Of a DNA stretch of 64,000 nucleotides, positions 23,392-59,185 are shown piece by piece (position 1 is the first letter of the stretch; each line of letters starts with the position of its first letter). The stretch lies in contig OZ242326.1 in NCBI GenBank assembly GCA_965208325.1, forward strand, positions 2,655,363 to 2,719,362, given 5' to 3'. This DNA comes from Candidatus Poribacteria bacterium (GTDB lineage: Bacteria; Poribacteria; WGA-4E; PCPOR2b). Under the pieces are notes generated by a model, which worked only from the letters and a program-made list of their open reading frames with translations, was not told the DNA's origin and ran no database searches. The translations under genes were made by a program, and so were the position numbers.

Positions 23392-23679
23392 TTGTAGGTT
23401 GGGTTAAGCGGAGTAAATGAGAGACGCGAATAATGTCGAGTGGATATCGGTATTTGAATTCGTTCGGTGTTTTTCTAAATGTAGCGAACCCAACGCTTTT
23501 GGATATTGCGGGGCGTTTGGTTTATCGGGCGACGTGTGGTTAAGACTATCGCCTTCGCTATTCGCTCAGTTGATCGTTGGGTTACGCTCCCCACATCGGG
23601 TCTTGGACGTCGTTAGGCTTCCAGAGCGAAACGAAAAATTGTACATCATTTCGTGAAATTCGCTCAACCCAACCTACAA
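23392..23679. mobile_element. MITE-like non-autonomous element with 18-19 bp terminal inverted repeats (TTGTAGGTTGGGTTAAGCG ... GCTCAACCCAACCTACAAG)
   Basis: Imperfect TIRs at 23392-23410 and 23661-23679. Inserted between two copies of a 70-bp direct repeat. Carries an internal copy of the dispersed 40-bp repeat (23544-23576). The only ORF is 79 aa with no similarity. Confidence 0.6.
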
Positions 23680-30880: not shown

Positions 30881-32392
30881 ATGCCTCAAACACTCAAACT
30901 ACATGGCCGCTTGTTGGTCAAAAATACGAGCCTCAATTTCGGGGCGAAGGTGCTGCCCCTTGTTGCAATGGGGGTCACGATTCCGTATGTGATTGAAGGT
31001 TTGGGAACGGCGCGTTACGGGATTTTCACACTCATCTGGGCTGTCATAGGTTATTTCAGCGTCCTTGATTTGGGTTTGGGGAAAGCGACCGCAAAGAAGG
31101 TCGCGGAAGCGATCGGCAGAGGGGAAAGCGCCTCGATTCCGTCTATTGCGTGGACGGCTGTCGTACTTACACTGGGTTTAGGGTTAATTGCAAGCTTCAC
31201 CCTCATGGCGTTCACATCGCTTCTGGTGAACAATGTCTTTCAGGTGGATGCCAACTTGAGCGAAGAGACCCAACAGGTCTTCTACCTTGCTGCGGTCGGT
31301 CTGCTCATCGCACTGGTCAAATCTGCGCTTACCGGGGTGTTGGAGGCGCATCAGCGGTTCGATTTAATCAACCTGGTGGGCGTTCCTTCAAGCTTGCTTT
31401 CCGCGGTTATCCCACCTTTTGTTCTTTATGCAGATGGCGGGCTGCCCGCTATCGTTAGTCTGCTCGTTATCAAAAACGGTTTCGAGCTATTCGTTTTGTC
31501 TTTCCTCTGGTTGAAGGTGTTGCCGTCAGGAGACCGCTTCTTTTCGCTAGATGTGAAAATGAGCCCCGCCCTTTTTTCGTTTGGAGGGTGGTTGACGCTG
31601 CACAACGTCGCGAGTTATATTCTACAATACGTTGAGCGGTTCCTAATTGGCGCGCTCTTGACAATTACAGCGGTCACCTATTACGGCGTTCCTTTCACCC
31701 TCATCAGTGCGTTGACGGTTCTTCCTTCGAGCCTGATGCCTGTCCTCTTTCCCGCTTTTAGCGCCCTTCACCATTCAGATGTCACGAGATTAGAAAATCT
31801 TTTCCGGCGGGCACTGAAATATCTCGTCGTATTGATGGGGCTAGCGGCGACGTTTCTGATGATATTTTCGGAGGAAATCTTGGTATTGTGGATTGGCGAG
31901 GATGGTATCAGAAGCATCAATGTACTTCAGTTCCTCGCTGTGGGATACGTGCTCTCGGTTGTTTCATGGTATTTCAGCACGTTCCTGCAAGGGACGGGCT
32001 ATATTAAAGCGGTGACGGCAATTGCGCTGGCGTTCTTGGCTTTTCAGGTTCCATTCTCATGGGCGTTAATCACGGTGTGGGGAATCGAGGGCGCGGCTTT
32101 GGCGTTCACATTCAGCCGGGCGCTGGTGGTTTTGGTATTCTACTGTACCGCTCGAAGGTTAAATCTGATACATCCTTTGCGGGTGTCCATCGGTAAACTG
32201 GCAAAACTCACCTGCGGGTTTTTGATTATCATTTCAGCAACGGTGTTGCTCAAAATAGTTGTAGGCATACTTCCGTGGTCTATCATTCTGAGCGCCCCTG
32301 TATTCATTGCAAGCACCCTCCTGTTTGGCTGGTATGCCATTCTCACCCATGAGGACAAACGCATGGTGTTGCAGTCGGTAAAGCGAGTCTGA
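30881..32392 (+). CDS. Wzx-type oligosaccharide flippase (MOP/PST family)
   Basis: 503 aa, about 14 TM helices, PST-family N-terminus (NFGAKVLPLVAMGVTIPYVIEGLGTARYGIF). Confidence 0.8.
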   Translation: MPQTLKLHGRLLVKNTSLNFGAKVLPLVAMGVTIPYVIEGLGTARYGIFTLIWAVIGYFSVLDLGLGKATAKKVAEAIGRGESASIPSIAWTAVVLTLGLGLIASFTLMAFTSLLVNNVFQVDANLSEETQQVFYLAAVGLLIALVKSALTGVLEAHQRFDLINLVGVPSSLLSAVIPPFVLYADGGLPAIVSLLVIKNGFELFVLSFLWLKVLPSGDRFFSLDVKMSPALFSFGGWLTLHNVASYILQYVERFLIGALLTITAVTYYGVPFTLISALTVLPSSLMPVLFPAFSALHHSDVTRLENLFRRALKYLVVLMGLAATFLMIFSEEILVLWIGEDGIRSINVLQFLAVGYVLSVVSWYFSTFLQGTGYIKAVTAIALAFLAFQVPFSWALITVWGIEGAALAFTFSRALVVLVFYCTARRLNLIHPLRVSIGKLAKLTCGFLIIISATVLLKIVVGILPWSIILSAPVFIASTLLFGWYAILTHEDKRMVLQSVKRV

Positions 32393-32587
32393 CACATTTC
32401 AAATCTGTTCGCTGAACTGGGACCTGCATTAGACGGGACGGAACTATGGAAAGTATCCCACTTTTACGAAGAAAAGTCCATTCGCCAGGTTGGAAAACAC
32501 CTCTTTTAAGGTAGAGCAAAACATTCAAATACAAATTCCAGCGATGAGAATACTAGGGCGTGTTGACATTTATGTAAAACGGCCTGC

Positions 32588-32787
32588 AATCGTAGGGGAT
32601 CAAGCGACTGAATAGGGAGTGCGATAGTTTTACTTATAGTGTTTATCAGGTTACCTCGCCCATTGACCAACGCGGGCAGGGAACTTCCAACCATACAGAT
32701 TGAGTCGATTTTGGTCAAACAGCCTACAGCAGTCCAAAATCGTATCTGATTCTGACAAAAGGGTTGGGGAACCCAACCCCTACGAAG
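32588..32787. mobile_element. second MITE-like element (about 200 bp) with TIR-like ends related to the 23392-23679 element; its left end coincides with a dispersed 40-bp repeat copy
   Basis: Left end is cgtaggggatcaagcg and right end is gggttggggaacccaacccctacgaag, compared with TIRs ttgtaggttgggttaagcg / caacccaacctacaag. Located between the convergent Wzx and rpe genes. Confidence 0.45.
32591..32630 (-). repeat. dispersed roughly 40-bp intergenic repeat, copy B (consensus AAACTATCGCCCTCGCTATTCGCTCGGTTGATCCCTACGG)
   Basis: The reverse complement aaactatcgcactccctattcagtcgcttgatcccctacg matches copies at 23544 and 34688 (+ orientation) and at 39767 (- orientation). Confidence 0.8.
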
Positions 32788-32893
32788 CGTCATGTGTATG
32801 TGCACCGTTCTTGATTGTCCAGTTGCGATGAAATGTCAACAGAACCTAATTTATTTCAGGTATTCCCGCTTCATTTAATCTTATTGCACCACT

Positions 32894-33565
32894 TCATGCC
32901 GAAGCGGCTTCCCGCAATCCATTTATCGCCTCTTTAACGTTATCGCTGCGGAAAATTGCCGTGCCTGCCACTAAAATTGTTGCCCCGCGGCTTCCCACCA
33001 AACGAGCAGTATCGAACGTGATTCCTCCGTCGACCTCAATCTCAATACTAGTGTTCCGTTCACGAACAAGTTGCTTCAACCGATCCAGTTTTTCGAGGGT
33101 GCCCATCATGAATGATTGACCGCTAAAGCCTGGGTCGACGCTCATAGGCAGAACAAGATCCAAATCGGCAAGGTACGGTTCTACCGAAGATATCGGTGTT
33201 GAAGGACGGAGGGCGATGCCCGCCTGTATCCCACGTGTCTTAATTTGGTCAATCACTTTCTGGATGGGAAAATCAATTTCGATATGAAACGTGATGAACT
33301 CCGCGCCGGCGTCCGCGAATACACCAATGTAATCTTGAGGATGCGTAATCATCAAATGCACATCGAAAGGGAGATTGGTATAGCGCCTGATGGATTTGAT
33401 GAGTTGCGGCCCCATCGTCAAATTGGGAGTAAAATGGCCATCCATAACGTCGAGGTGGATCAGATCGGCGCCCGCCGCAACGATTTTGCTAACTTCCTCA
33501 CCCATCCGGCTGAAATCCGCTGATAGCATTGACGGGGCAATCTTGATTTTTTTTTCGGTCACCAC
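32894..33565 (-). CDS. rpe: ribulose-phosphate 3-epimerase
   Basis: KIAPSMLSADF, HLDVMDGHFTPNLT, and C-terminal GADILVAG-like motifs. Confidence 0.9.
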   Translation of the reverse strand: MVTEKKIKIAPSMLSADFSRMGEEVSKIVAAGADLIHLDVMDGHFTPNLTMGPQLIKSIRRYTNLPFDVHLMITHPQDYIGVFADAGAEFITFHIEIDFPIQKVIDQIKTRGIQAGIALRPSTPISSVEPYLADLDLVLPMSVDPGFSGQSFMMGTLEKLDRLKQLVRERNTSIEIEVDGGITFDTARLVGSRGATILVAGTAIFRSDNVKEAINGLREAASA

Positions 33566-34536
33566 AGTTCTTTCCTCACTACTTCATTATTATCTTCATA
33601 GACAACCATCGTCGCTTCGCCGAGGACTTTATACGGCTGAGAAATCTTAAACCCGGCTTGGTAGCGGCTATCAATCACTTTTTTTCTTCCGCGGTCGTCT
33701 ACCACAAAAATGGTCACCTTTTTCGAAGCGGCAGTCGTCGAGGACACTTCGTGTTTAATGACGACGAATTCCCCTTTTTCCGCCGGCCCTATCGGTGAGC
33801 CGCTAATCACGAGATCAACAACCTGACCCACTGGAATCAGGGTGCCCGCGTCCGGTTGATGGCTGATAATCAACCCTTGATTAATTTCTGCATGCAGCGC
33901 GTAATTTTCTACTCCAATTTTAAGGCTGTGCGATTCAAGTAAATTACGAACTTCATCAAGACCCATACGGCGTAAATCCGGCATACGCAAAATTTTTGGA
34001 CGCGGACCCGAACTTAACAGAAGATTCACTAGAGTTCCGCGCACATGCGCGGCGCCGGCTTGCGGCGTTTGCGCAATCACCGTATTGACTTCAGGATAGC
34101 GGTCCGAATGCACAACCGCAACGCGCCCACGGCGAAATCCGGCGTCTTTGAGGATTCTTTCCCCGTCCTCCAAGGATTGATTGACAACGTCTGGCACTGA
34201 AATACTCTCGTTGCCTACACTCAAAGTCAGTCGAACCGGCTTCTTGCGTTTCACTTTGAAGTCGGCGAGAGGTTCTTGTGCGATTACATGGCCTTCCGGA
34301 ATCACATCGCTCGGTTTCTGCTCAAGCTCCGGATCGAGTTGCAATCCCGCGTTGTAGACCATCTGGATGGCTTGCTGGTGGCTCTGACTTATCAGATTAG
34401 GAACTGCAACCTCGCCGCCCCGAACCAAACTAGGAATAACGACGAACAACAAAACCAATCCAACCATGCAAACAACAATGAGGCTAAAAAAGGCAACTTT
34501 GATAATCGCAAAGAAAACGGCATTTAGGTTCATCAT
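33559..34536 (-). CDS. membrane-anchored PASTA-domain protein (3 PASTA repeats, no kinase domain)
   Basis: N-terminal TM helix followed by three roughly 65-aa PASTA repeats (VPNLISQSHQQAIQMV..., VPDVVNQSLEDGERIL..., MPDLRRMGLDEVRNLL...). Overlaps the rpe start by 7 nt. Confidence 0.75.
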   Translation of the reverse strand: MMNLNAVFFAIIKVAFFSLIVVCMVGLVLLFVVIPSLVRGGEVAVPNLISQSHQQAIQMVYNAGLQLDPELEQKPSDVIPEGHVIAQEPLADFKVKRKKPVRLTLSVGNESISVPDVVNQSLEDGERILKDAGFRRGRVAVVHSDRYPEVNTVIAQTPQAGAAHVRGTLVNLLLSSGPRPKILRMPDLRRMGLDEVRNLLESHSLKIGVENYALHAEINQGLIISHQPDAGTLIPVGQVVDLVISGSPIGPAEKGEFVVIKHEVSSTTAASKKVTIFVVDDRGRKKVIDSRYQAGFKISQPYKVLGEATMVVYEDNNEVVRKELW

Positions 34537-34573
34537 TTTAGTACCATCAAGCGGCCAAACAGAAAGCGTGATA

Positions 34574-34726
34574 GATTTTGAAGTCTATCGCCGTCATTAT
34601 TCGTACCTTTCAGGTTGTACCTGCTCGTCAGTTAGTATTATCACCCTCGTATTCGCTCGGTTGAAATTGTACCTGCTTATCGGTTAAAACTATCGCCCTC
34701 GCTATTCGCTCGGTTGATCCCTACGG
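34574..34726 (+). repeat. tandem array of about 2.8 diverged 53-bp repeats whose last unit is the dispersed 40-bp repeat (copy C, 34688-34726); overlaps the 3' end of fmt
   Basis: Units are gtctatcgccgtcattattcgtacctttcaggttgtacctgctcgtcagttag, tattatcaccctcgtattcgctcggttgaaattgtacctgcttatcggttaaa, and actatcgccctcgctattcgctcggttgatccctacgg. Confidence 0.8.
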
Positions 34727-35661
34727 AAAAATCGATCCCCAGTTTTCAAACGATGACCGTTAATAAAATCGTAACCACGTATTTTTTGTCTGTTTGCAGG
34801 TTGCACACAATCCAGCCGCACTGCTCGGTGTCCTGCAACCACAATGAGCTCCTTATCAGGCGTAATCTGGATTGTACCCGGCGGATTATCTGAGGAATTC
34901 GTACAATCGACAGCAGCGCAGTCGATTATCTTCAAGCGAAGGTTATCCCCCAAATAGGTGTATGCGCTGGGCCAAACAACGGTACCTCGCACTAAATTGC
35001 AGATTTCAGCCGCGGATTTTCGCCAGTCAATCTGCCCAATCTCTTTTGTCAGTCGAGGCGCTTGCGTCGCCTCCGCGTGGTCCTGCGGCGAATGAGGCGG
35101 AGGTACGCCTGATGCGTTTTCCAAAGCTTGAATCAAAAGCGGAGCGGCTAAGCGCGCCAAGCGGTTGGAGAGGGTCGCGGCTGTATCTTGAGGGTCAATT
35201 TTCACCCGCCTTTGCAGGATAATGCCCCCGGTATCCGCCCCTTCATCAAGCAGCATTATGGTAACTCCTGTCTCCGTCTCCCCATTGATTAAAGCCCATT
35301 GAATTGGCGCAGCGCCGCGGTATTTGGGAAGTAGAGACGGATGCGAGTTGATACATCCACAAGGTGGGATAGCTAACACCGATTTGGGCAGCAATTGACC
35401 GAATGCGGCGACTACGATAGCCATCGGCCGGAGGTTTTTCAAAACTCGAATAAACTCTCGATGGCGTACCTTCTCAGGTTGATATACCGGCAAATTATGC
35501 GCAGCGGCAATAATCTTGACGGGCGGCGGCGTGAGCCGCTTGCCTCTGCCGCTGGGTTTATCCGGTTGGGTCACGACACCGACGATATCGAAGTTTTCAG
35601 CGATTAGCTGTTCCAGGCTAGGAATAGCAAATTCGCTCGTCCCCATGAAAACGATTCTCAT
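34702..35661 (-). CDS. fmt: methionyl-tRNA formyltransferase
   Basis: MRIVFMGTSEFA, formyltransferase N-domain, HPSLLPKYRG motif, and C-terminal domain. Confidence 0.9.
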   Translation of the reverse strand: MRIVFMGTSEFAIPSLEQLIAENFDIVGVVTQPDKPSGRGKRLTPPPVKIIAAAHNLPVYQPEKVRHREFIRVLKNLRPMAIVVAAFGQLLPKSVLAIPPCGCINSHPSLLPKYRGAAPIQWALINGETETGVTIMLLDEGADTGGIILQRRVKIDPQDTAATLSNRLARLAAPLLIQALENASGVPPPHSPQDHAEATQAPRLTKEIGQIDWRKSAAEICNLVRGTVVWPSAYTYLGDNLRLKIIDCAAVDCTNSSDNPPGTIQITPDKELIVVAGHRAVRLDCVQPANRQKIRGYDFINGHRLKTGDRFFRRDQPSE

Positions 35662-35669
35662 TTTTCAAT

Positions 35670-35745
35670 AGCGCTGTCCTTTCGCTCAGTCGTCCCTATT
35701 CGGTCGCCTGATCATTTACTATTTGTTCGCTTAATCCTTTCAGGT
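35670..35745 (+). repeat. degenerate copy of the dispersed repeat family in the def-fmt intergenic spacer
   Basis: cctttcgctcagtcgtccctattcggtcgcctgatc and tatttgttcgcttaatcctttcaggttgag resemble the 34574-34726 units. Confidence 0.5.
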
Positions 35746-36227
35746 TGAGTTTCCAGCAACTCCTGATCCTCAAGAATCAATCGGTCAATGAACAGAACCC
35801 CGTCAAGATGATCGATTTCATGCTGTAAGACTCGCGCCATTAACCCGCTCGCTTCAAATTCGACTTCATCCGTGTTCAGAAGCAGGCCCTTAACCGTTAC
35901 ATCCATGGCACGCCTCACAATGCCCCTGTAACCGGGCAAACTCAAGCACCCTTCCTCTCCCAGTTCCTCACCTTCCGCACGCGTAATTACAGGATTAATC
36001 AACGCAATTGGCGGAATTTCAGGGTGATAGTCATTGATGTCGATGGCAATAATCCTATTGGAAACACCAACCTGCGGCGCAGCCAAACCAATGCCTTGAG
36101 CTGACCGCATGGTCTCAAACATATCCTGAACCAATTTAGAAATATTCGCGGAAATCTGTTCGACGGGCGAGGCCTTCTCACGTAAAATGGGTGTGTTTTC
36201 ACCGACCACAATATTCAAAACTGCCAT
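35712..36227 (-). CDS. def: peptide deformylase
   Basis: GIGLAAPQVG, EGCLSLPG, and HEIDHLDG metal-binding motifs. Confidence 0.95.
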   Translation of the reverse strand: MAVLNIVVGENTPILREKASPVEQISANISKLVQDMFETMRSAQGIGLAAPQVGVSNRIIAIDINDYHPEIPPIALINPVITRAEGEELGEEGCLSLPGYRGIVRRAMDVTVKGLLLNTDEVEFEASGLMARVLQHEIDHLDGVLFIDRLILEDQELLETQPERIKRTNSK

Positions 36228-36304
36228 AGCTTGTTATGTAGCATATAAGCAGATAAGCCAATTCCAATTGATTATAGCACTATTGGTTATAATTGGCAAA
36301 ACAG

Positions 36305-36787
36305 CTAAAATCGAATGTGGACCAACGGAACAAAAAGACCCTGCGAATCTTCCAATTCCCATTCGTTCTCACTGACTCTTTCCGGGGTCGGTGCGGAGGG
36401 TGGAGACGTTGGAATGAGCTGCTCGGACAAGTTTTTATCGCGTGTATGAAGCCAATCCCAGAAACCAATGAAGAGTGCGAGTGACGCGGCTGACGCACCC
36501 ATAATTTTAAAGTCCAGGCTGTCAAGGTCAGGCGCAACTTGGTTTTGCCGAATCATTTCAACGCCGCGCACAGCAAGAAAACTGTGAATTGCTGTAAATG
36601 GTAGTGAAACGAGTGTCACAATCTCAAATCGCCGCAATGCGCTCTCTTGATATACTTCTCTTTCTTGGGCTTTGCCCTGTCCTCTGCGCACCGACGCCCT
36701 TTCCCCCGACGAATTTTGAGATTGGCCATAGGAATTCCCTGACGCTAACAACGCAATTATTAGAACAGACAGTAGTTTAGCTTTCAT
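36305..36787 (-). CDS. hypothetical exported protein
   Basis: Signal peptide MKAKLLSVLIIALLASGNSYG. No family motif. C-terminal F. Confidence 0.45.
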   Translation of the reverse strand: MKAKLLSVLIIALLASGNSYGQSQNSSGERASVRRGQGKAQEREVYQESALRRFEIVTLVSLPFTAIHSFLAVRGVEMIRQNQVAPDLDSLDFKIMGASAASLALFIGFWDWLHTRDKNLSEQLIPTSPPSAPTPERVSENEWELEDSQGLFVPLVHIRF

Positions 36788-37286
36788 TTTGTTTGCGATC
36801 ATCGTAATCTCCTCGATGACGAAGCAGGTGAATTATAAGCATTCCCGCCCCGACACAGACTGCCACATCGGCAAGGTTAAATGTTGGCCACCAAAAATTC
36901 GGCAGCAATCGAAACCGAAGGAAATCTGTAACCTCGCCGTGGCGAATTCGATCCAAAAAATTTCCGAGCGCCCCGCCTAGTAGGACGCTGAGGGCAATTC
37001 TCATCCACAAACTGTGCAGGTATTGCTTGTAATAGACAAATATAAAGCCGATAGCAACGATTGTTATTATCGTAAGAATCAAATTTTGCCCGCGCATCAG
37101 TCCGAAGGCAGCACCGGTGTTTGTGGTATAGCTTAGTTCAAATATTCCTTCAATGACAACAATAACCTGTGGATTGCGCGGTACAATGATTTCTTGGACC
37201 AACCATTTGGTCAACTGATCTGCGGCGAGTACGAGAGAGGTAATCCCCAATAACGGAAGAAACAGCTTGATTCTATCTTTCAACAT
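36777..37286 (-). CDS. lspA: lipoprotein signal peptidase (signal peptidase II)
   Basis: NTGAAFG, GGALGNFLDR, and FNLADVAV motifs. Confidence 0.9.
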   Translation of the reverse strand: MLKDRIKLFLPLLGITSLVLAADQLTKWLVQEIIVPRNPQVIVVIEGIFELSYTTNTGAAFGLMRGQNLILTIITIVAIGFIFVYYKQYLHSLWMRIALSVLLGGALGNFLDRIRHGEVTDFLRFRLLPNFWWPTFNLADVAVCVGAGMLIIHLLRHRGDYDDRKQNES

Positions 37287-37358
37287 GGTTAACTTTCCCT
37301 ATGTACCATATTGCTGCGGTTCTAGTTGGTTTGCGCATTAAACGCACCGCGATTAAAA

Positions 37359-37661
37359 TTAACTGCCCCGCATTGCATGAATTGTATCGAGAGTATATGC
37401 CTCATAGGGGGTCTCCAATAGCTCCGCTAACCGGTCAAATTCACTTGCATCTTGCGCTTGTTCGACCATTGCCTCGTGCGATTCAGCGGATTCCCATTCC
37501 TCAATCTCAAATATGTGATGTTTTTGTGTTTGATCTTGAAGCAGTGAAATACGTTTACAACCTGCGTCAAGCAACATAGGTTGTAAATCGGTCAAAAAAT
37601 CCAATAGGGCATCAATTTTGTCCGGCTTAGCTTGGTAACGGACGATAACCGTAACGCTCAT
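37359..37661 (-). CDS. ABM-domain (antibiotic biosynthesis monooxygenase / YgiN-like) protein
   Basis: MSVTVIVRYQAKPDKIDALLDFL...HHIFEIEEWESAESHEAM. Ferredoxin-like ABM fold pattern. Start assigned to the internal Met. Confidence 0.5.
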   Translation of the reverse strand: MSVTVIVRYQAKPDKIDALLDFLTDLQPMLLDAGCKRISLLQDQTQKHHIFEIEEWESAESHEAMVEQAQDASEFDRLAELLETPYEAYTLDTIHAMRGS

Positions 37662-37830
37662 CACGCCTCTCCGTATATGCAGTAGATTGTGCCGTTGGCA
37701 CTTTGGCCGGCAAAAAAACAAAATTCAATCGTGGTGTAACTTTATGTATCCAAGGCACCTGCGTTTCTTCTAATTTTTTTCTTGGTTTAACGGGTCGCGC
37801 AAATCGATAGATCTGAATCAATCCCAAGTA

Positions 37831-38097
37831 TTAAAATGCCGCGTTCACGAAATTTTGTAGTACGGTCAACAGAAGAATTAGAACGATTGGCGAGATGTCG
37901 AATGGGACATTGCCCATTAACGGTCTGAGTAACTGGCGGATTGGATCTAAAAGCGGATCTACCAATTGCCCCGTCGTCCAATAGAATCTCCGAATCGTCA
38001 TATTCGGGTTGCCAATATGCACCAACCAAGACAAAATCACGTTGGCAACCACAATCAGTGTATAGATTCCAATCAATTTGCTCAATATCCAACCCAT
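37831..38097 (-). CDS. yggT: YggT-family membrane protein
   Basis: 88 aa, two TM helices. Sits in the conserved yggS-proC-yggT neighbourhood. Confidence 0.75.
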   Translation of the reverse strand: MGWILSKLIGIYTLIVVANVILSWLVHIGNPNMTIRRFYWTTGQLVDPLLDPIRQLLRPLMGNVPFDISPIVLILLLTVLQNFVNAAF

Positions 38098-38122
38098 ATT
38101 CTCGGTTCCTTGTCGGTAGTTT

Positions 38123-38932
38123 TTATTTCGCTAGTGCCTCTGCACGCTTGGTCGCTGCAATTACCGCATCAGCAACTATTGCCCGCAGGCGTCCACGTTC
38201 CAGTTCGTACAGTCCCGCCGCCGTAGTTCCACCCGGCGTCGTCACAAGGTTTTTCAGCACCGCCGGGTGTTCCTCAGTCTTCTCCAACATCTTGCTCGCC
38301 CCAAGCACCGTTTGCACTGCAAGTTGAAATGCATCCGTTCGGGTTAATCCAACCTGCACGCCAGCGTCCGCAAGCGCTTCAATAAACAGGAAGACAAATG
38401 CAGGTCCGCTGCCGCTTAAACCGGTAACAGCGTTAAGATAGGTGTCGTCCCTGATAAACGATTTGCCCACAGTATCAAAAATAGCCTGTGTTAGCGTAAG
38501 ATGGTCGTCTGTTGCAGCGCTGCCCCCGGCAATGACCGAGACTGCGGCGCCAACAGAAATCGTGATGTTTGGCATCACGCGAACAATTGGTGCGGGAGGA
38601 GAAAAATAGGATTCCAATTTAACTGCAGGGACGCCCGCTGCAATCGAGATTAGCCATTGATGCGCACTAATTGAAGCTGCGATTTCAGGAAAAATTTCTG
38701 GCACATTATTCGGCTTGGCTGCATACAAAATGCAGTCAACGTTCTCAACTAGTTGAGAGACATCCGCGGCGCGGTTAACGCCCAATTCTTCGCACAACTC
38801 ATCTACGGGTGGTTTGTAAATATCCGTAATCCAAATCTGTTCCGGTGGGAGTAAATCGCCCGCAACTCCTCTAACGATTGCACATCCCATGCTACCGACA
38901 CCTATGGTGCCCAATCGAAGTGTCTTATCCAA
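38123..38932 (-). CDS. proC: pyrroline-5-carboxylate reductase
   Basis: LGTIGVGSMGCAIVRG NADP motif and the P5CR C-terminal dimerisation domain (TTPGGTTAAGL). Confidence 0.9.
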   Translation of the reverse strand: MDKTLRLGTIGVGSMGCAIVRGVAGDLLPPEQIWITDIYKPPVDELCEELGVNRAADVSQLVENVDCILYAAKPNNVPEIFPEIAASISAHQWLISIAAGVPAVKLESYFSPPAPIVRVMPNITISVGAAVSVIAGGSAATDDHLTLTQAIFDTVGKSFIRDDTYLNAVTGLSGSGPAFVFLFIEALADAGVQVGLTRTDAFQLAVQTVLGASKMLEKTEEHPAVLKNLVTTPGGTTAAGLYELERGRLRAIVADAVIAATKRAEALAK

Positions 38933-38948
38933 AGCCTATATTCCTTTC

Positions 38949-39638
38949 CTACACCCGTTTGCCGAAAATAGCTGTGCCGATTCGGATAACATTCGCTCCT
39001 TCTTCGACAGCAACTTCAAAATCATGCGTCATACCCATCGAAAGGTAAGCCATGTCAACCCCCTGAAACCGCTGCGATTTAACCTGTTCCTGAAGACGCC
39101 CTAACAATGCAAATGAAGGACGTACCGCATCCACATTCGGTGCAAACGGCCCAATTGTCATAAGTCCTTTGATCCGGACATGTCTATAATCTAGGGCGCT
39201 TTCGATGAAGCTGAGTACCTGTTCCGGCTGAACACCGTACTTACTCGACTCGCCCGATGTGTTGACCTGAACCAACACGTCGGTCTGGCAATTCAAACCA
39301 GCGGATCGGCGATTTATTTCATTAAGGAGACGCAGGCTATCCACCGAGTGAATCAAATCGAAAATTCGTAATGCCGCTTTGACCTTGTTTCTTTGTAAAT
39401 GCCCAACAAAATGCCACTTCACCGGTCGGTCAATCTGGTCATATTTGGTTCTGGCTTCTTGAAGTTGGTTTTCCCCAATCTCCGTAACGCCGGCGTCAAT
39501 CGCTTCTAGAATGAGAGAAGCTGGTTTGGTTTTGGACACGGCGACAAGGCGTACCGCTTCGGGGTCGCGTCCAGCACGATCGGCCGCAGCATCAACTCGG
39601 TCCCGGACTTGCTTTAAATTTTCATGAATGGAAGCCAA
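38949..39638 (-). CDS. yggS: YggS-family pyridoxal-phosphate homeostasis protein
   Basis: LVAVSKTKP (PLP-Lys), GENQLQE, and WHFVGHLQRNK motifs. Confidence 0.9.
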   Translation of the reverse strand: MASIHENLKQVRDRVDAAADRAGRDPEAVRLVAVSKTKPASLILEAIDAGVTEIGENQLQEARTKYDQIDRPVKWHFVGHLQRNKVKAALRIFDLIHSVDSLRLLNEINRRSAGLNCQTDVLVQVNTSGESSKYGVQPEQVLSFIESALDYRHVRIKGLMTIGPFAPNVDAVRPSFALLGRLQEQVKSQRFQGVDMAYLSMGMTHDFEVAVEEGANVIRIGTAIFGKRV

Positions 39639-39766
39639 ACGATCACTATCCCTCCGCCCTGCAATACCTTAATGTTGGCAGTTGAACTTATTCCCACTGC
39701 AATGTTACACCTATTGACACAAGGGTAGATTCAGCGAACAGATAGGAAACATTGACCGGCCCAATA

Positions 39767-39805
39767 GGGAGGGATCAACCGACTGTATAGGGAGGGCGAT
39801 AGTTT
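39767..39805 (-). repeat. dispersed roughly 40-bp intergenic repeat, copy D
   Basis: Reverse complement aaactatcgccctccctatacagtcggttgatccctccct. Confidence 0.75.
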
Positions 39806-39824
39806 CTCTTCCCCATTAACTCAA

Positions 39825-40571
39825 TCATTCAGAGGACGCCTCATCAGGTAGGGAAGGTGGAACATAGAGAATACGTTGACAACTTCCACATCGGATAATT
39901 TGTTCGTTTTTACGAGCCTGCTGTAAGGTCTGAGGCGGAACTCTGAGATGGCAACTGCCGCACGCATTGTCTACAACCAACGAAATCAGCCCTGTGCCTT
40001 GACGTTTGAACCACTCCTGATAACGGTTTATTAAATCGGGATGGATTTTCGGCTGAAAATTAAGACGCTTTTCTTGATAGTCTGCAATTTGTGATTTGAG
40101 GTCATCCGTTTCTTTTTCATATTCGGCTTTCTGCTCATTATTTTTCGCTTGCTCCCCGTCGAACGCCTTTTGTTGTTGATTCAGCTCTTCTTTGAGTTGG
40201 TCTATCAGTAGCATGATTTCTAAAATTTCGTCTTCAATCTCCGCCTCTTTTCCCATGAGAAAACTAATCTCTTGGTCCACCGCCTGATACTCTTTGTTGG
40301 TCTTAACCTCCCGTAATCGTGCCTGAGATTTTCGGCGCTGTTCTTGCTGCATCTCAAGCGCACCCGCTTTTGATCGTTGCTCCTTTTCCGCGTCCGCTAA
40401 CTTTTTCTGCTTTTCTTCCAGTTTCTGCTGATATACGTGAATACTCTCCTCCAACCTTTTTATCTTGTTTGGAACCGACTTCAATTTATCTTGAACCGCC
40501 AGAATTTCGGTGTCGGTCTGCTGCAGTTCAAATAAGAGCGGCAACTGTTCTTGTAAGTTAAAATTAAGCAT
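39825..40571 (-). CDS. coiled-coil C4 zinc-ribbon protein (COG1579 / zf-RING_7-like)
   Basis: Long heptad-repeat region followed by CGSCHLRVPPQ...RCGSCQRIL. Confidence 0.75.
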   Translation of the reverse strand: MLNFNLQEQLPLLFELQQTDTEILAVQDKLKSVPNKIKRLEESIHVYQQKLEEKQKKLADAEKEQRSKAGALEMQQEQRRKSQARLREVKTNKEYQAVDQEISFLMGKEAEIEDEILEIMLLIDQLKEELNQQQKAFDGEQAKNNEQKAEYEKETDDLKSQIADYQEKRLNFQPKIHPDLINRYQEWFKRQGTGLISLVVDNACGSCHLRVPPQTLQQARKNEQIIRCGSCQRILYVPPSLPDEASSE

Positions 40572-41394
40572 AGCTTTCCGGCTCGCTTTCCACGAGAAAA
40601 GCGAGAAAAATTCCCAGCTGGTAGAGTCCAATGAGTGGAATCGCCATCAGAAGCATTGATGCCGGATCTGCTGGCGTCAACATAGCCGACAATACAAAGA
40701 TCCCGAGGAACGCATAGTTGCGTCGTTCTCGAAACCCTTGAGAATTAATCACCCCAATCCATGACAGAAACGCCATGACAATCGGAAGTTCAAACGCGAT
40801 GCCGAACCCGATTAACAAGCGCGTCAGGAAATTCACATACCTGTCCAACTCCCACAAGTTATCATAGTCTTTTAAGAGCTTTGCGGAAAATTCCATTACA
40901 ACTGGCGCCACGATAAAATATGCGAAAATCGCGCCAACCACGAAGAAAAACACGATGACAAAAAACAAGGGAAGTGCATACCTCTTCTCCCGATGTGTCA
41001 ATGCGGGGAAGATAAACGACCAAATCTGGTACAGCACCACCGGCGACGCCATCAGGAAGCCAAAGGTAAAGCTGATTTTGATGTAAGCCATAATGCCTTC
41101 GACAACGCCGCCCTTAATGATCTTCGCGTCAACGGTTGAACCGCTAGCCCTCAGAACAATTGAGAGATACCCAAAGAATGACCCGTCCGGCGCACCAACC
41201 CAATCTATCAATGTTGCCAATGATACGTTGATCGGCATATTCAAAGGCAACGTCAAAATTTTGGCGTAAAAATTATGAAACGTCAGACTAGCCGCCACGG
41301 AAATACCAACCGCAATAGCAGATATGATTATCCGCCGCCGGAGCTCCTCAAGATGCTCCCAGAAGGTCATGGACCTACCGTCGTCAGATGCCAT
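40564..41394 (-). CDS. tatC: twin-arginine translocase subunit TatC
   Basis: MTFWEHLEELRRRII, six TM helices, and LTPADP motif. Confidence 0.9.
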   Translation of the reverse strand: MASDDGRSMTFWEHLEELRRRIIISAIAVGISVAASLTFHNFYAKILTLPLNMPINVSLATLIDWVGAPDGSFFGYLSIVLRASGSTVDAKIIKGGVVEGIMAYIKISFTFGFLMASPVVLYQIWSFIFPALTHREKRYALPLFFVIVFFFVVGAIFAYFIVAPVVMEFSAKLLKDYDNLWELDRYVNFLTRLLIGFGIAFELPIVMAFLSWIGVINSQGFRERRNYAFLGIFVLSAMLTPADPASMLLMAIPLIGLYQLGIFLAFLVESEPESYA

Positions 41395-52154: not shown

Positions 52155-54401
52155 ATGCAAACTGACAAGCAAAACCAATTCATGAAAATGGCACAATTTG
52201 TAACATTAATACTTCTCGTATTGGTAACGGTCACATTTGCATCAAACAGCTCCGCCCAAGGTTCTCCGCAATGGAGTCTCCCCGATGGCGCTAAAGCCCG
52301 CTTCGGCAAGGGTGAGATAAATGAAATACAGTATTCGCCCGACGGTACACGGCTTGCGGTGGCTAGCGGTATCGGTATTTGGCTCTACGATACGGCGACC
52401 CATCAAGAAGTCGCGCTGCTCGCGGGGAATATGTCCGCCGAAAGCGCTGCGTTCAGTCCGGATGGGCGTACCATTTTAAGCGCAAATGGAGACTCAATCC
52501 GATTCTGGCACGCCGATACTGGCGAATCCATGCGAACCGTTACCGTATCGGATTCGGTCGAAAGCGTTGGGTTCAGTCCCGATGGGCGCGCTATAGTAAG
52601 TAGTGCGAGTTGGGGCGATACCGGTGACGAGGATTGGGGAGATACCATCCGTCTTTGGGACGCCGATACGGGCGAACTTCTACACACGCTCACCGGGCAT
52701 TCTAGTATTGTTGAAATCGTTGCGTTTAGTCCAGATGGACGCACTGTCGCCAGCGGGGGTTGGGATGCTACCGTCCGGATGTGGAACGCTGACACGGGCG
52801 AAATCCTTCAAACCCTCATCGGGCATTTTGGTAGTGTCGATAGCATTGCATTCAGCCCCGATGGTGCAATGCTTGCCAGCGCGGACTTTTTCGACATTCG
52901 GTTGTGGGACATTGCTACAGGCGAACTTCTCCGGACGTTCGAGCCGGAAAGAAGTGGCGTCAATGGCGTCGCATTCAGCCCGGACGGCACAACGCTTGCC
53001 AGTGGGATTTGGGAAGAAATTCATCTGTGGGACACTGCTTCGGGCGAACTCATCCGAACGCTCAACGGACATACGAGTTGGGTCAATAGCGTTGCGTTCA
53101 ATCCTGATGGGCGCACTATCACCAGTCACAGCCGAAACGGCGCCATCCGGATGTGGGACGTTACCTCGGGCAACCACCTCGGAACGCTCAACGGGCATAC
53201 GAGTTCGCTCAGGAGCATCGCGCTCGCCCCTGACGGCGCGACGCTCGCTGGCGGGAGCGATACCGGGACCGTACGGCTGTGGGACATTGCGTCTCGCCAA
53301 CACCTGCGTACACTCACTGGAAACAGCCGTAGTGTCAGTAGCGTCGCTTTCAGCCCAGGTGGCACAACGATCGCTACCGGGAGTGATGACAGTAATGTAC
53401 GGCTGTTAGACATTGCGGATGGGGAACTCCTACGAACACTCAGCGGACATAGCTTGAGTGTCCATAGCGTAGCCTTCAGCCCAGATGGTGACAGAATCGT
53501 TAGCGGAGGTTATGACAGTCGGGCGCGGCTTTGGGACGCTGCCACAGGAAACCACCTGTTCACGTTCGACGAGCATGCGGGTTCTGTCAACACCGTCGCA
53601 TTCCACCCAAATGGGCGCACGGTCGCCAGTGCGGGTAGGGACACCCTCATCCGCCTGTGGGACGCCGCCACGGGCAAGCAATTAAAAACGCTCGAAGGAC
53701 ATACGGGTGCCGTCGGTAACGTCGCTTTCAGTCCTGACGGTGCGATGCTCGCTAGTGGAAGCTGGAGTGAGATTATTCTGTGGGACACAGCATCGGGCGA
53801 ACTACTGCAAATACTCAGCGGGCATACGAGTTCGGCCAGTAGCCTCGCTTTCAGCCCGAATGGCAATACGCTCGCGGGCGGAAGCTCGGAAGAGATTCAC
53901 CTGTGGGACATCGCCACAGGCAACCACCTGCGAACACTCGCCGGGCATGCGAAGTCGGTCAGTAGTGTCGCTTTCAACCATGATGGTGACACTCTCGCGA
54001 GTGCAAGTTCGGACGGCACCGTGCTGCTTTGGGAAATTTCCCCATCAACCGGTGTTGGGATTTCGGTAGAACCTTTGGAAAGCCGCATCACGACGTTGGG
54101 AAACATCAAACGCACGGCGCTGCTGCAGAATTATCCAAATCCGTTCAACCCTGAAACCTGGATGCCATATCAGTTGGAACAAGACGCTTACGTCACCTTA
54201 ACCATCTATGACCAGAGCGGTAATGTCGTCCGCATCCTTGACATTGGACATCAAAAACCGGGAGTCTACCGAGACAAATCAGAAGCGGCGTATTGGGACG
54301 GCCGCAACCAAAACGGAGAACCCGTCACCAGCGGCACGTATTACTACCAACTCCGTGCGGGCGATTACACCGCATTACGGCGGATGGTGATTGTCAAGTA
54401 G
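52155..54401 (+). CDS. secreted WD40-repeat protein with T9SS type-A / FlgD-Ig-like C-terminal sorting domain
   Basis: Signal peptide, EIQYSPDGTRLAVASGIGIWLYDTATHQEV, about 14 WD repeats (…IRLWD…), and C-terminal LLQNYPNPFNPETWMPYQL…YYYQLRAGDYTALRRMVIVK. Confidence 0.85.
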   Translation: MQTDKQNQFMKMAQFVTLILLVLVTVTFASNSSAQGSPQWSLPDGAKARFGKGEINEIQYSPDGTRLAVASGIGIWLYDTATHQEVALLAGNMSAESAAFSPDGRTILSANGDSIRFWHADTGESMRTVTVSDSVESVGFSPDGRAIVSSASWGDTGDEDWGDTIRLWDADTGELLHTLTGHSSIVEIVAFSPDGRTVASGGWDATVRMWNADTGEILQTLIGHFGSVDSIAFSPDGAMLASADFFDIRLWDIATGELLRTFEPERSGVNGVAFSPDGTTLASGIWEEIHLWDTASGELIRTLNGHTSWVNSVAFNPDGRTITSHSRNGAIRMWDVTSGNHLGTLNGHTSSLRSIALAPDGATLAGGSDTGTVRLWDIASRQHLRTLTGNSRSVSSVAFSPGGTTIATGSDDSNVRLLDIADGELLRTLSGHSLSVHSVAFSPDGDRIVSGGYDSRARLWDAATGNHLFTFDEHAGSVNTVAFHPNGRTVASAGRDTLIRLWDAATGKQLKTLEGHTGAVGNVAFSPDGAMLASGSWSEIILWDTASGELLQILSGHTSSASSLAFSPNGNTLAGGSSEEIHLWDIATGNHLRTLAGHAKSVSSVAFNHDGDTLASASSDGTVLLWEISPSTGVGISVEPLESRITTLGNIKRTALLQNYPNPFNPETWMPYQLEQDAYVTLTIYDQSGNVVRILDIGHQKPGVYRDKSEAAYWDGRNQNGEPVTSGTYYYQLRAGDYTALRRMVIVK

Positions 54402-54502
54402 CGGCAAATCGTTGCAGCGATTCCGCGTTATTTTATAACCTCGTTTCTGCAATTACTGAGGACGACGTGATTTACGATACTCAACCATCCAGGGCAACTG
54501 TT

Positions 54503-56779
54503 ATGAAGATAGCGTTGATTTTCAAAATTAGCTTACTGTGCGTTTCCGCTCTTTGTCTGCCGCATAGCCTCGCTCAAAAATCTCCGCAATGGAGCCTGCC
54601 CGAAGGCGCAATAGCTCGCCTTGGAAAGGGTAGGATAAGCGATATACAGTATTCGCCCGACGGCACTCGACTTGCGGTAGCGAGCAGCATCGGTATTTGG
54701 CTCTATGATACGGCGACCCATCAAGAGGTTACACTGCTCGCCCCGCATATTTATGTCGAAAGCGTTGCGTATAGTCCGGATGGGCGCACCATCGCGGGCG
54801 GAAGCAGTGACAACATCATCCGACTGTGGGACGCACATACGGGTGAACAACGGCGAATACTCATCGGACATACGAGTTGGGTCAGGACAGTTGCGTTCAG
54901 CCCTGACGGACGCACACTCGCAAGTGGGAGCAGTGACGACACCGTCCGGCTGTGGGATGCGCTCACGGGAAAACTCCTTCACACACTCACCGGGCATTCG
55001 GACGAAATTCGCAGCGTTGCGTTTAGTCCTGATGGCAACTCGCTCGTAAGCGGGAGCAGCGACAATTCCATCCGTCAGTGGGACTCATTTACGGGCGAAC
55101 ACCGGCGAACACTCACCGGACACACGTCTGGCGTAGTAAGCGTCGTGTTCAGTCCAAATGGGCGTACCATTGCAAGTGCGAGCGGGATCAGTGATGGAGA
55201 CGGCATCCGGCTGTGGAACACCGATACGGGACAACTTCGGAGCACGCTCATCGGACATTCGGGGCGGGTCACGAGCGCCGCGTTTAGTCCCGATGGTGAC
55301 AGAATCGCAAGTACTAGTTGGGACAATACAATCCAACTGTGGGACGCACATACGGGTGAACACCGACGAACACTCACCGGACACACGTCTGGAGTAGTCA
55401 GCGTCGTGTTCAATCCTGATGAACGTACGCTCGCAAGTGGTAGTGGAGACGGTACTATCCGGTTATGGGACATTGAATCGGGAGAATTCCTGCGATCAAT
55501 CCCCGGGCATACGGGTTGGGTCGACACCGTTGAATTCAGTCCCGATGGACAAACGCTCGCAAGTGTGAGTTCGAGCTATATCGTTGAGCACAGTCCAAAC
55601 CGCCGCGCAGGAAGTGGGGGCGGCAACGCAACTATCCGGCTGTGGAACGCCGATACCGGAAAACTCAGGCTATCAATTAACGAGTACAAGAATGGAATTG
55701 ATGACGTTTCGTTTAGTCCCGATGGGCGCACTCTCGCTGGTGTTGGCTGGAACAGTATCCAATTATGGGACACCAACACCGGAGAACTTCTGCGAACACT
55801 CAGGGAGCATGAAGGTTGGGTCAATACTATTGCGTTCAGCCCCAATGGACGCACAATTGCTACTGGAGGGAGTTGGGACAACGTCGTCCGTCTTTGGGAC
55901 GCCGATACCGGAAAACTCCGGCAATCGCTCATCGGACATACCGATTCGGTCACGAGCGTTGCCTTCAGCTCCGACGGACACACGCTCGCAAGTTGTGCGG
56001 GATTAGACAATACCATCCGTATGTGGGACGCCAATGCGGGAAAACTCCTGCGTACGTTCACTGGAACTACCGGTTTGGGAGCGAGCGTTGCCCTAAGTGC
56101 CGATGGAAGCACGCTCGCAAACGCCGGTAATTGGGATGGCACCGTCCTGCTCTGGGATACCGATTCAGGCGAACTCCTACATACCCTCACCGGACATAGA
56201 TTTGACGTCGAAAGCATTGCGTTCAGTCCCGATGGACTCATCCTCGCCAGCGGAGGGAGTTGGGACGACACCATTCGACTGTGGAACATCAAATCGGGGA
56301 AACTCCACCAAACACTCAAAGGCCATGCGATTGGGGTGCGAAGCGTGGCGTTTAGTCCGAATGGACGTACGATGGCTAGCGCCGGTTTGGACGGCACAAT
56401 ACTCCTTTGGGATTTTACTCTCAGCACCTCCGATGACGTTGCGGTTGAGAATTTGCCGCAGCTCACCACGACCCTGGGAAACATCAAACGGACGGCGTTG
56501 CTGCAAAATTACCCGAATCCGTTCAACCCCGAAACCTGGATACCGTATCAGTTGGAAAAGAATTCACTGGTGACCTTGATTATCTACAACCAAAGCGGCC
56601 ATATCGTCCGCACACTTGACATAGGGCATCAAAGTTCGGGAGCTTACCTAGACAAATCAGAAGCGGCGTATTGGGATGGATGCAACCAGAACGGAGAACC
56701 CGTTACCAGCGGCGCGTATTTTTGTCAACTCAGGACGGGTGATTACAGCGCGTTACGGCGAATGTTGATTGTCAAGTAA
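54503..56779 (+). CDS. secreted WD40-repeat protein with T9SS type-A / FlgD-Ig-like C-terminal sorting domain
   Basis: Same architecture as the 52155 gene. Start assigned to the Met at 54503 (MKIALIFKISLLCVSALC signal peptide). Confidence 0.85.
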   Translation: MKIALIFKISLLCVSALCLPHSLAQKSPQWSLPEGAIARLGKGRISDIQYSPDGTRLAVASSIGIWLYDTATHQEVTLLAPHIYVESVAYSPDGRTIAGGSSDNIIRLWDAHTGEQRRILIGHTSWVRTVAFSPDGRTLASGSSDDTVRLWDALTGKLLHTLTGHSDEIRSVAFSPDGNSLVSGSSDNSIRQWDSFTGEHRRTLTGHTSGVVSVVFSPNGRTIASASGISDGDGIRLWNTDTGQLRSTLIGHSGRVTSAAFSPDGDRIASTSWDNTIQLWDAHTGEHRRTLTGHTSGVVSVVFNPDERTLASGSGDGTIRLWDIESGEFLRSIPGHTGWVDTVEFSPDGQTLASVSSSYIVEHSPNRRAGSGGGNATIRLWNADTGKLRLSINEYKNGIDDVSFSPDGRTLAGVGWNSIQLWDTNTGELLRTLREHEGWVNTIAFSPNGRTIATGGSWDNVVRLWDADTGKLRQSLIGHTDSVTSVAFSSDGHTLASCAGLDNTIRMWDANAGKLLRTFTGTTGLGASVALSADGSTLANAGNWDGTVLLWDTDSGELLHTLTGHRFDVESIAFSPDGLILASGGSWDDTIRLWNIKSGKLHQTLKGHAIGVRSVAFSPNGRTMASAGLDGTILLWDFTLSTSDDVAVENLPQLTTTLGNIKRTALLQNYPNPFNPETWIPYQLEKNSLVTLIIYNQSGHIVRTLDIGHQSSGAYLDKSEAAYWDGCNQNGEPVTSGAYFCQLRTGDYSALRRMLIVK

Positions 56780-56887
56780 CTCCACACAATTGAAGCAAGA
56801 AACCAACCGTTTTAAAAAAACTGGACTCTATGGTTACTGCGTGCGGTATGAATCAGATGCGGCACACCAACATGGAGGGTTATTGCA

Positions 56888-59119: not shown

Positions 59120-59185
59120 GAGAACGACGTGTTCAATGACTATTCTGCGGATTACGTTATTTATGTCGCAGTTTACAGAACTATA

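Follow-up and report, generated by a model that had tools for sequence, protein, structure and literature searches.

Background

Among Escherichia coli repetitive extragenic palindromes (REPs) and the ends of insertion sequences (IS) of the IS200/IS605 type, HUH/Y1 enzymes recognize weak hairpins interrupted by mismatches, and correction of the mismatches in E. coli REPs abolishes binding (PMC3479197). In Pseudomonas, genes for the corresponding REP-associated tyrosine transposases (RAYTs) are usually present in single copy (PMC3116915, PMC5581495). The present analysis concerns a dispersed repeat of about 40 nt, here called the 40-mer, in a 64,000-nucleotide stretch of a Candidatus Poribacteria genome (GenBank assembly GCA_965208325.1, contig OZ242326.1, positions 2,655,363–2,719,362 of the forward strand); this whole stretch is referred to as the window. 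With a probability of roughly 0.68, the 40-mer belongs to the REP class, as a hairpin repeat that builds mosaics like the bacterial interspersed mosaic elements (BIMEs) and has a link to RAYTs. Such elements are known from other bacteria and are here newly recognized in Poribacteria. To our knowledge, REPs and RAYTs have been characterized almost entirely in Proteobacteria, with surveys that reach Cyanobacteria and few other phyla. No description of REPs in Poribacteria was found in the literature searched; REP/RAYT systems are themselves well known, and RAYTs are already automatically annotated in metagenome-assembled genomes (MAGs) of Poribacteria.

Distribution and placement of the family

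An earlier examination of the window from its letters alone (the sequence-only reading) had listed at least four good copies of a 40-nt consensus and proposed a REP/BIME-like family. A 30-nt degenerate core, allowed up to 3 mismatches, matches the window at exactly four places (23546–23575 and 34690–34719 on the + strand, 32598–32627 and 39773–39802 on the − strand) and matches nothing in 100 dinucleotide-preserving shuffles; a profile built from the four copies scores each of them at E = 4e-12 to 1.4e-10, and the 40-nt consensus is an exact match to window 34687–34726. The four copies are real, lying no more than 1–3 nt from where they had been placed.

An exact-pattern scan with ACTATCGCNNTCNCTATNCNNTCNNTTGATC (23 specified bases) of one genome per species, covering 185,579 bacterial and archaeal species, is expected by our estimate to give about 0.02 matches by chance. 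At least 105 stretches match, and among the matches listed all are Candidatus Poribacteria, in 14 MAGs. This is the genome-wide count that had been suggested as a check, and the restriction of copies to the window that had been named as grounds for abandoning a repeat family is contradicted by these 14 other poribacterial genomes. The same pattern has no match in a viral collection of 2.9 million contigs, and a phage origin was rejected on this ground. Likewise, 80 unrelated fmt loci from metagenomes hold no copies; the best relatives among them are just 57–58% identical, so that insertion polymorphism in orthologous fmt/def spacers could not be read from them, and the result serves as a negative control.

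The 105 8-kb blocks (840 kb) around the listed matches, labeled like the other related loci by L-numbers and not including the window, contain 287 copies by profile search. Most of these (254, or 88%) lie wholly outside open reading frames (ORFs) of at least 120 aa, in a greedy ORF set that covers 74% of the DNA, so in copy number, dispersal and extragenic placement the family is like REPs. Codirectional, divergent and convergent spacers are occupied in proportion to their length, and in codirectional spacers 58 copies run along the gene direction and 83 against it, which is no strong transcription bias. Copies are spread along six chromosomes, on which no replichore blocks of copy orientation were found. 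This use of spacers, the mixed orientation and the lack of replichore blocks speak against the copies being promoters, terminators, RNA elements specific to one strand or motifs polarized by replication. In particular, a promoter (−35/−10-like hexamers or the Bacteroidetes type TAnnTTTG) was rejected since the orientation of the window copies is inconsistent with their downstream genes and the 58 to 83 division holds elsewhere, and replication-linked polarity of the Chi or KOPS (FtsK-orienting polar sequence) kind was rejected from the six chromosomes. Of the pairs of neighboring copies in the related loci, 121 run in the same direction and 62 in opposite directions; the +, −, +, − alternation of the window copies, which the sequence-only reading had pointed out, is therefore incidental and no rule.

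Bounds and hairpin structure of the unit

In 285 aligned copies the information content is confined to about positions −1 to 38, with none in the 80 nt on either side, so the 40-mer is a discrete element of ∼40 nt (38–40 nt) and not the tip of a longer one. On the strand of the original consensus its layout is ..ACT ATCG C XX TC ZC [TATTC] WW TC YY T TGAT C.., in which four variable positions per side, interleaved with invariant ones, covary as Watson-Crick partners (pair states CG/GC/AT, CG/TA/GC, GC/CG/AT and CG/TA). With four covarying and four invariant pairs the unit is an imperfect hairpin, a short imperfect palindrome with stem mismatches such as characterizes REPs; this feature was absent from the sequence-only reading, which had suggested only that conservation of structure be checked.

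The covariation was measured on 127 distinct copies, with 500 shuffles and with partners slid by 1–3 columns as controls. Pairing cells amount to 92.3%, compared with 76.3 ± 0.8% after shuffling, and none of the 500 shuffles reaches the observed value; double-change cells number 172 as against 61.7 ± 5.5 in shuffles, and the covariation score is 0.407 where slid partners give at most 0.071. The two variable stem segments occur in 87 distinct combinations, so the covariation does not come from a few amplified subfamilies. The hairpin claim rests on this covariation, not on folding energy.

The strand that functions is probably not that of the original consensus but its reverse complement, 5'-(GTAG)-G-GATCAA-nn-GA-nn-GAATA-nn-GA-nn-GCGATAGT-3'. 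Its stem would comprise ATC/GAT, two mismatches, 2 bp, a tandem G.A/A.G internal loop and 2 bp, with 5 nt in the closing loop. What is an invariant TC/CT internal loop on the other strand reads here as tandem GA/AG, a mismatch pair that is comparatively stable.

Arrangements of copies, GTAG tags and two further REP families

Eight head-to-head doublets are present in a 45–49-nt register, most of them with a spacer of the TTAACCGRCAGTGAA type, so that inverted pairing with a characteristic spacer, as in BIMEs and in the REP doublets called REPINs, is found here also. The two arms of a doublet are two different subtypes, which is BIME-like and unlike a strict REPIN. Direct tandems have periods of 36 and 52 nt (the array between the PASTA and fmt genes of the window is of the 52-nt kind), and partial tandems with a 23-nt period repeat unit positions 13–35. 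Sharp 23-nt partial tandems (CYTCGCTATTCGCTCAGTTGATC) were seen at L002:271–340, L098:4481, L080:916 and L033:6036; they could arise by slippage between the similar ATCGC/GATC arms or as enzyme-made joints. At L058:150–5660, 19 copies in mixed orientation and with irregular spacing lie within 5.6 kb, beside a Cas4/PD-(D/E)XK-like ORF (464–1084); no array of clustered regularly interspaced short palindromic repeats (CRISPR) is present there.

Two other repeat families, both tagged with GTAG, accompany the 40-mer. REP-B (GTAG-GTYGGGTT ... AACCCRAC) has a stem that covaries between genomes, and its tag occurs 130 times in the 840 kb of related loci, compared with 0.8 expected. The third family, REP-C (motif GTAGGGTGCGC), is a short canonical REP, GTAG-GGTGCGC-(ACC)-GCGCACC; it was seen at L021:2400–3800, L117 and L119, and no locus of the second RAYT clade described below is without it; sometimes a 40-mer is inserted in its loop. 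Some 40-mers thus nest in the loops of REP-B and REP-C hairpins. The idea that an outer stem surrounds the majority of copies was rejected, since one of at least 7 nt is present around only 24 of the 287 (control 12.6 ± 3.2), and nesting is a minority state. In the window, two REP-B hairpins form a REPIN-like element of ∼285 nt (23394–23677) that encloses one 40-mer (copy 1 of Table 1); the whole folds at −49.3 kcal/mol (z = −3.6), and the composite of this copy and the REP-B pair is conserved in three other loci (L003, L005 and L102).

The 40-mer itself is tagged in part. CTAC, which is GTAG on the opposite strand, occurs within 40 nt downstream of 105 of the 287 copies, while the control tetramer GTAG does so for 11, and CTACAA is found downstream of 50 copies where about 3 are expected. 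Preferred offsets of CTAC are 0–1, 5 and 10–12 nt; offsets 5 and 12 correspond to a 40-mer within the loop of a REP-C or REP-B hairpin. GTAG stands 0–2 nt from the hairpin foot in 24 of the 287 copies. Two of the four window copies (copies 2 and 3; GTAG-GG-GATCAA and GTAG-G-GATCAA) are tagged at the foot in this way, and copies 1 and 4 are untagged.

RAYT genes beside the copies

Ten ORFs bracketed by inverted copies were examined, one of which is a Y1 transposase; the other nine are unrelated (Laminin_G_3, PhyH, Cas4-like, IS630-like transposase) or without a match. The transposase gene (L084:2576–3118) is a RAYT: its product scores 201.6 bits with NF047646 (an NCBIfam equivalog model, cut-off 80) and 27 bits with the IS200 model (cut-off 55). 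Its alignment with E. coli TnpA-REP (PDB 4ER8) reaches E = 3.9e-40, and both the HUH motif (HLH) and the YIxxNP tyrosine are matched in it. Inverted 40-mers flank this gene at 114 and 127 nt. The L102 RAYT is 80% identical to that of L084 and has one 40-mer 245 nt upstream, and the L021 RAYT belongs to a second clade (43% identical; NF047646 179.5 bits), with 40-mers 63 and 67 nt from its ends. RAYT genes thus lie within 63–245 nt of copies in three genomes; association with such genes was among the checks that the sequence-only reading had suggested. In all, the 105 blocks contain three intact RAYTs, two of them (L102 and L021) found by tblastn, and one degraded RAYT, compared with ∼0.2–0.3 by chance (our estimate for 105 random 8-kb blocks of genomes of 5–6 Mb).

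The association was also ascertained independently, by finding 11 RAYT homolog loci through the protein and scanning each for 40-mers within 2.5 kb. A 40-mer is present in 3 of 3 loci of clade 1 RAYTs with 77–86% identity and in 2 of 3 loci of clade 2. The subtype of the 40-mer's 5' flank follows the RAYT clade, being AAGACTATCGC at clade 1 genes (5 of 5) and GGGATYT-CTATCGC at clade 2 genes (3 of 3). The close homologs of both clades come from Poribacteria, followed by cyanobacterial RAYTs at ∼57–65% identity.

Some features of these loci are recorded in their own right. Three tandem RAYT paralogs of 193 aa each lie on one metagenomic Poribacteria contig (L118:1057–3082). A degraded second RAYT (L084:724–1028) lies ∼1.5 kb from the intact L084 gene, and the latter is bracketed by a direct repeat of ∼45 nt (2530–2570 and 3180–3220; TTATGCCATATT..GGACATATAYCAACGAAAACCA) that is neither 40-mer nor REP-B. 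At L071:2625–3829, IS630-like ORFs (HTH_32, DDE_3) lie between two inverted 40-mers; this is probably an IS inserted in a repeat cluster.

Interpretation and alternatives

The REP/BIME-like character that had been proposed for the family is supported by its dispersal, its placement, the covarying hairpin, the proximity of RAYTs and the inverted doublets and mosaics. The 40-mer would spread through intergenic DNA as single-stranded DNA (ssDNA), most likely by means of host-encoded RAYTs of the HUH/Y1 class. If it works like E. coli TnpA-REP, such an enzyme would recognize the mismatched hairpin together with a 5' guide tetranucleotide, cut nearby and rejoin the strands. Single copies, doublets joined head to head, complete and partial tandem arrays, and mosaics that include REPs of other types would all result from such cutting and rejoining. 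The step from RAYT proximity to binding and moving is borrowed from the E. coli system (PMC3479197, PMC6006769, PMC5581495). That RAYTs bind and move the 40-mer itself we infer only by this analogy, because only about a quarter of the copies have a GTAG tag and other GTAG-tagged REPs lie beside every RAYT.

Several observations weigh against reading the 40-mer as a RAYT-linked REP. Only 70 of the 287 copies (∼24%) have GTAG within 14 nt. Every clade-1 RAYT examined is directly flanked by REP-B (GTAG-GTYGGGT), the clade-2 loci all hold REP-C (GTAG-GGTGCGC; directly flanking in L021, not always adjacent), and in several RAYT loci REP-B or REP-C is nearer to the gene than any 40-mer. None of the 5 independently found loci of clade 1 RAYTs with 65–72% identity has a 40-mer within 2.5 kb, and the overall 5 of 11 loci is only modestly above a rough background of ∼18%, the share of genes that, as estimated from the window, have a copy in an adjoining spacer (rough binomial p ∼0.03, our estimate). 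No RAYT gene was found in the window by tblastn. Finally, single 40-mers fold as ssDNA no better than shuffles (minimum free energy 0 to −2.1 kcal/mol, z = +0.6 to +1.8), and the RNAalifold consensus hairpin is only −0.22 kcal/mol.

The alternative that survives best, though we consider it unlikely, makes the 40-mer an accessory part of BIME-like mosaics, either a structured site for a host protein or a hitch-hiker in or beside GTAG-tagged REPs, and no substrate of a RAYT. An analog for such a host-protein site is the L motif within E. coli BIME-1, which binds integration host factor. It is REP-B or REP-C rather than the 40-mer that stands beside every RAYT examined; the same 40-mer core is found at two RAYT clades only 43% identical and with unrelated REP stems, the positions and mismatches of the core are invariant across 14 species, and some 40-mers lie in REP-B or REP-C loops, all of which would fit a module of this sort. 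On the other hand, the Watson-Crick covariation at four pairs favors a folded single strand over a duplex protein site, there are doublets made only of 40-mers with their own conserved spacer, and a subset has GTAG right at the foot like a canonical REP. Most 40-mers are moreover solo (24 of 287 with an outer stem of at least 7 nt; 210 of 287 without GTAG within 14 nt), and since most copies stand alone, hitch-hiking by itself cannot account for their spread. A protein-binding site as such, which the sequence-only reading had offered in place of a REP, is compatible with the REP reading and no rival to it, because a REP is the binding site of its own transposase.

A related and slightly more doubtful view treats the 40-mer as an independent replicator or a recruited structural module layered on the REP/RAYT system. 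It would then be a universal inner hairpin with invariant non-canonical pairs, found in at least 14 species and at both RAYT clades and able to nest in the loops of their unrelated GTAG-tagged REPs. As such it would be a second-order parasite or a host-selected partner of the REPs and not a substrate private to one RAYT.

It is very unlikely that the 40-mer is a miniature derivative of another transposon (a miniature inverted-repeat transposable element, MITE, or a palindrome-associated transposable element, PATE) or the end hairpin of one (IS200/IS605 TnpA/TnpB or a DDE-type IS). Similar imperfect hairpins do lie subterminally in IS200/IS605 elements (PMC3479197), and the inverted copies at L071 bracket an IS630-like DDE_3 transposase; this bracketing is a single instance, however, and the 285 copies have no conservation past ∼40 nt, no terminal inverted repeats and no target duplications. 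With the RAYT as query and E up to 10, tblastn finds only RAYTs in the 840 kb of repeat-rich loci, and the sole Y1 transposase among the ten bracketed ORFs fits the RAYT equivalog and not IS200. The end of a longer MITE was rejected specifically, as there is zero information outside the unit and the marks of a MITE (terminal inverted repeats, target-site duplications, an internal body) are lacking.

Less probable again is an RNA element acting in cis in operon spacers (an mRNA stabilizer, a processing site or a small RNA, for example) and kept for its role in transcripts. Copies do lie in the spacers of co-transcribed housekeeping genes, the structure covaries, and E. coli REPs affect mRNA stability (PMC6006769), but relative to transcription the copies are not consistently oriented (58 same, 83 opposite), no type of spacer is preferred, divergent and convergent gaps hold them also, and the predicted RNA hairpin is very weak. 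Nor is there an Rfam match on the window or on 32400–40000: Rfam 15 gives none at the gathering score on the window, and on 32400–40000 at E up to 1 it gives one chance-level snoRNA, which lies elsewhere. A CRISPR array was rejected because both orientations occur, the copies are irregularly spaced, and tandems with periods of 23, 36 and 52 nt leave no spacers. Local duplication or chance resemblance, for which nothing speaks after testing, is refuted by the absence of matches in 100 shuffles, in the viral set and in 80 fmt loci and by the at least 105 stretches in 14 other genomes.

Copies and genes in the window

The copies, the two REP-B hairpins and the neighboring genes are listed in Table 1. 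The gene names, which had been given from the sequence alone, were checked with Pfam and are borne out. Copy 1, which had been placed inside a MITE-like element, does lie within a larger element, the inverted pair of GTAG-tagged REP-B hairpins, and abuts a GTTGGGTT arm of it. Copy 2 reads on the + strand GTAG (32592–32595), GG, then GATCAAGCG...GCGATAGTTTTA, with its 5' GTAG tag 2 nt from the hairpin foot; in copy 3, CTAC (34721–34724) gives the − strand a GTAG at a distance of 1 nt from the foot; and copy 4, without a GTAG tag, has CCCTCCCTAT after the unit. The degenerate copies that had been reported are likewise present in the profile search. The tandem array that had been described between the PASTA and fmt genes is there as well, with a period of 52 nt and 2.0 copies (34615–34717) by Tandem Repeats Finder, and not of 53 bp.

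Placement in the window had been called exclusively intergenic, which does not hold for copy 3, because the fmt stop codon TAG (34702–34704) and the last 8 codons of that gene (FRRDQPSE) fall inside the repeat and are made of its sequence. The repeat-derived 3' end of fmt spans 34702–34726, and the C-terminal Pfam domain of the protein stops ∼15 residues earlier, so the 3' end of the gene appears to have been remodeled by insertion. If the 40-mer is a RAYT-linked REP, its copies in the window are passive residents of operon spacers, one of which now forms the 3' end of fmt.

Table 1 Features of the window discussed in the text
Feature	Position	Strand	Location or sequence	Evidence
40-mer copy 1	23541–23580	+	TAAGACTATCGCCTTCGCTATTCGCTCAGTTGATCGTTGG	Profile E = 9.5e-11
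40-mer copy 2	32593–32632	−	Convergent gap between Wzx-like gene and rpe	Profile E = 1.4e-10
40-mer copy 3	34685–34724	+	PASTA-fmt spacer; copy matching the original consensus	Profile E = 4e-12
40-mer copy 4	39768–39807	−	Spacer between yggS and Zn-ribbon (CT398-like) gene	Profile E = 2.5e-11
Decayed tandem copy	34634–34667	+	Second unit of 52-nt-period array	Profile match 34639–34664, E = 0.003
Further decayed tandem copy	34580–34617	+	Third unit of 52-nt-period array	Profile match 34581–34603, E = 0.31
Degenerate copy	35672–35718	+	fmt-def spacer, overlaps 3' end of def	Profile match 35692–35716, E = 0.007
REP-B hairpin 1	23394–23494	+	GTAG-GTTGGGTT ... AACCCAAC	8-bp stem predicted
REP-B hairpin 2	23576–23677	−	Inverted relative to hairpin 1	−20.1 kcal/mol, z = −2.9
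Wzx-like flippase (Polysacc_synt)	30881–32392			Pfam
rpe	32894–33565			Pfam
PASTA protein	33559–34536			Pfam
fmt	34702–35661			Pfam
def	35712–36227			Pfam
yggS (Ala_racemase_N)	38949–39638			Pfam
CT398-like Zn-ribbon protein (CT398/Zn_ribbon_9)	39825–40631			Pfam

Elsewhere in the window (1–1900 and 52155–61405) lies an array of large WD40-repeat paralogs, with 11–13 WD40 repeats in the two that were tested. Each closes with a conserved C-terminal tail (..NPFNPETWIPYQL..), and their 126-nt repeats dominate the repeat content of the window.

Significance and comparison with known systems

Together the 40-mer, REP-B and REP-C account for a large part of the repetitive sequence between genes in these uncultured sponge-symbiont Poribacteria. 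The family flags likely pitfalls of assembly and annotation (false short ORFs, and genes that end in repeat sequence, as fmt does), and it supplies markers for strain typing. The known REP mechanism is unchanged by the finding. The unusual traits are mild, namely a very weak hairpin, partial tagging with GTAG, and one core across two RAYT clades and at least 14 species; the coexistence of one hairpin core with two RAYT clades offers a natural test case.

The REPs and BIMEs of E. coli with TnpA-REP (PDB 4ER8; Messing 2012, PMC3479197; Quentin 2018, PMC6006769) resemble the 40-mer in having a unit of ∼35–40 nt with conserved stem mismatches. They share with it also the extragenic placement in both orientations, the high copy number, a RAYT gene among the repeats and GTAG at the foot (in the 40-mer, of a subset), and, as with the Y and Z REPs of BIMEs, subtypes are combined in inverted pairs with specific spacers. 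On the other hand, the poribacterial hairpin is far weaker (2+2+3–4 bp with invariant mismatches), GTAG is present in only ∼24% of copies, and other GTAG families (REP-B and REP-C) lie beside every poribacterial RAYT examined. REP families are usually specific to one RAYT, whereas the poribacterial core is kept over at least 14 species and two RAYT clades.

With the REPINs of Pseudomonas (Bertels and Rainey 2011, PMC3116915; Bertels 2017, PMC5581495) the 40-mer has in common the inverted doublets with fixed spacers, the link to RAYTs and the high frequency. The arms of the poribacterial doublets differ in subtype, however, so that a long doublet hairpin would be mismatched, and many copies stand singly or form direct tandems, whose periods are 23, 36 and 52 nt. 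The atypical REPs of TnpA-Y1 subclass 2.6 and class 3 (Quentin 2018, PMC6006769) are similar in lacking the consensus GT[AG]G, in their weak structure and in flanking RAYT-like genes, but the RAYTs of Poribacteria are near typical enzymes (NF047646; cyanobacterial relatives at 57–65%). The subterminal hairpins of IS200/IS605 elements, finally, likewise combine an imperfect hairpin with a guide tetranucleotide and are recognized as ssDNA by an HUH/Y1 enzyme; at the 40-mer, by contrast, there is no IS body, no pair of left and right ends and no TnpB, and the protein associated with it is a RAYT.

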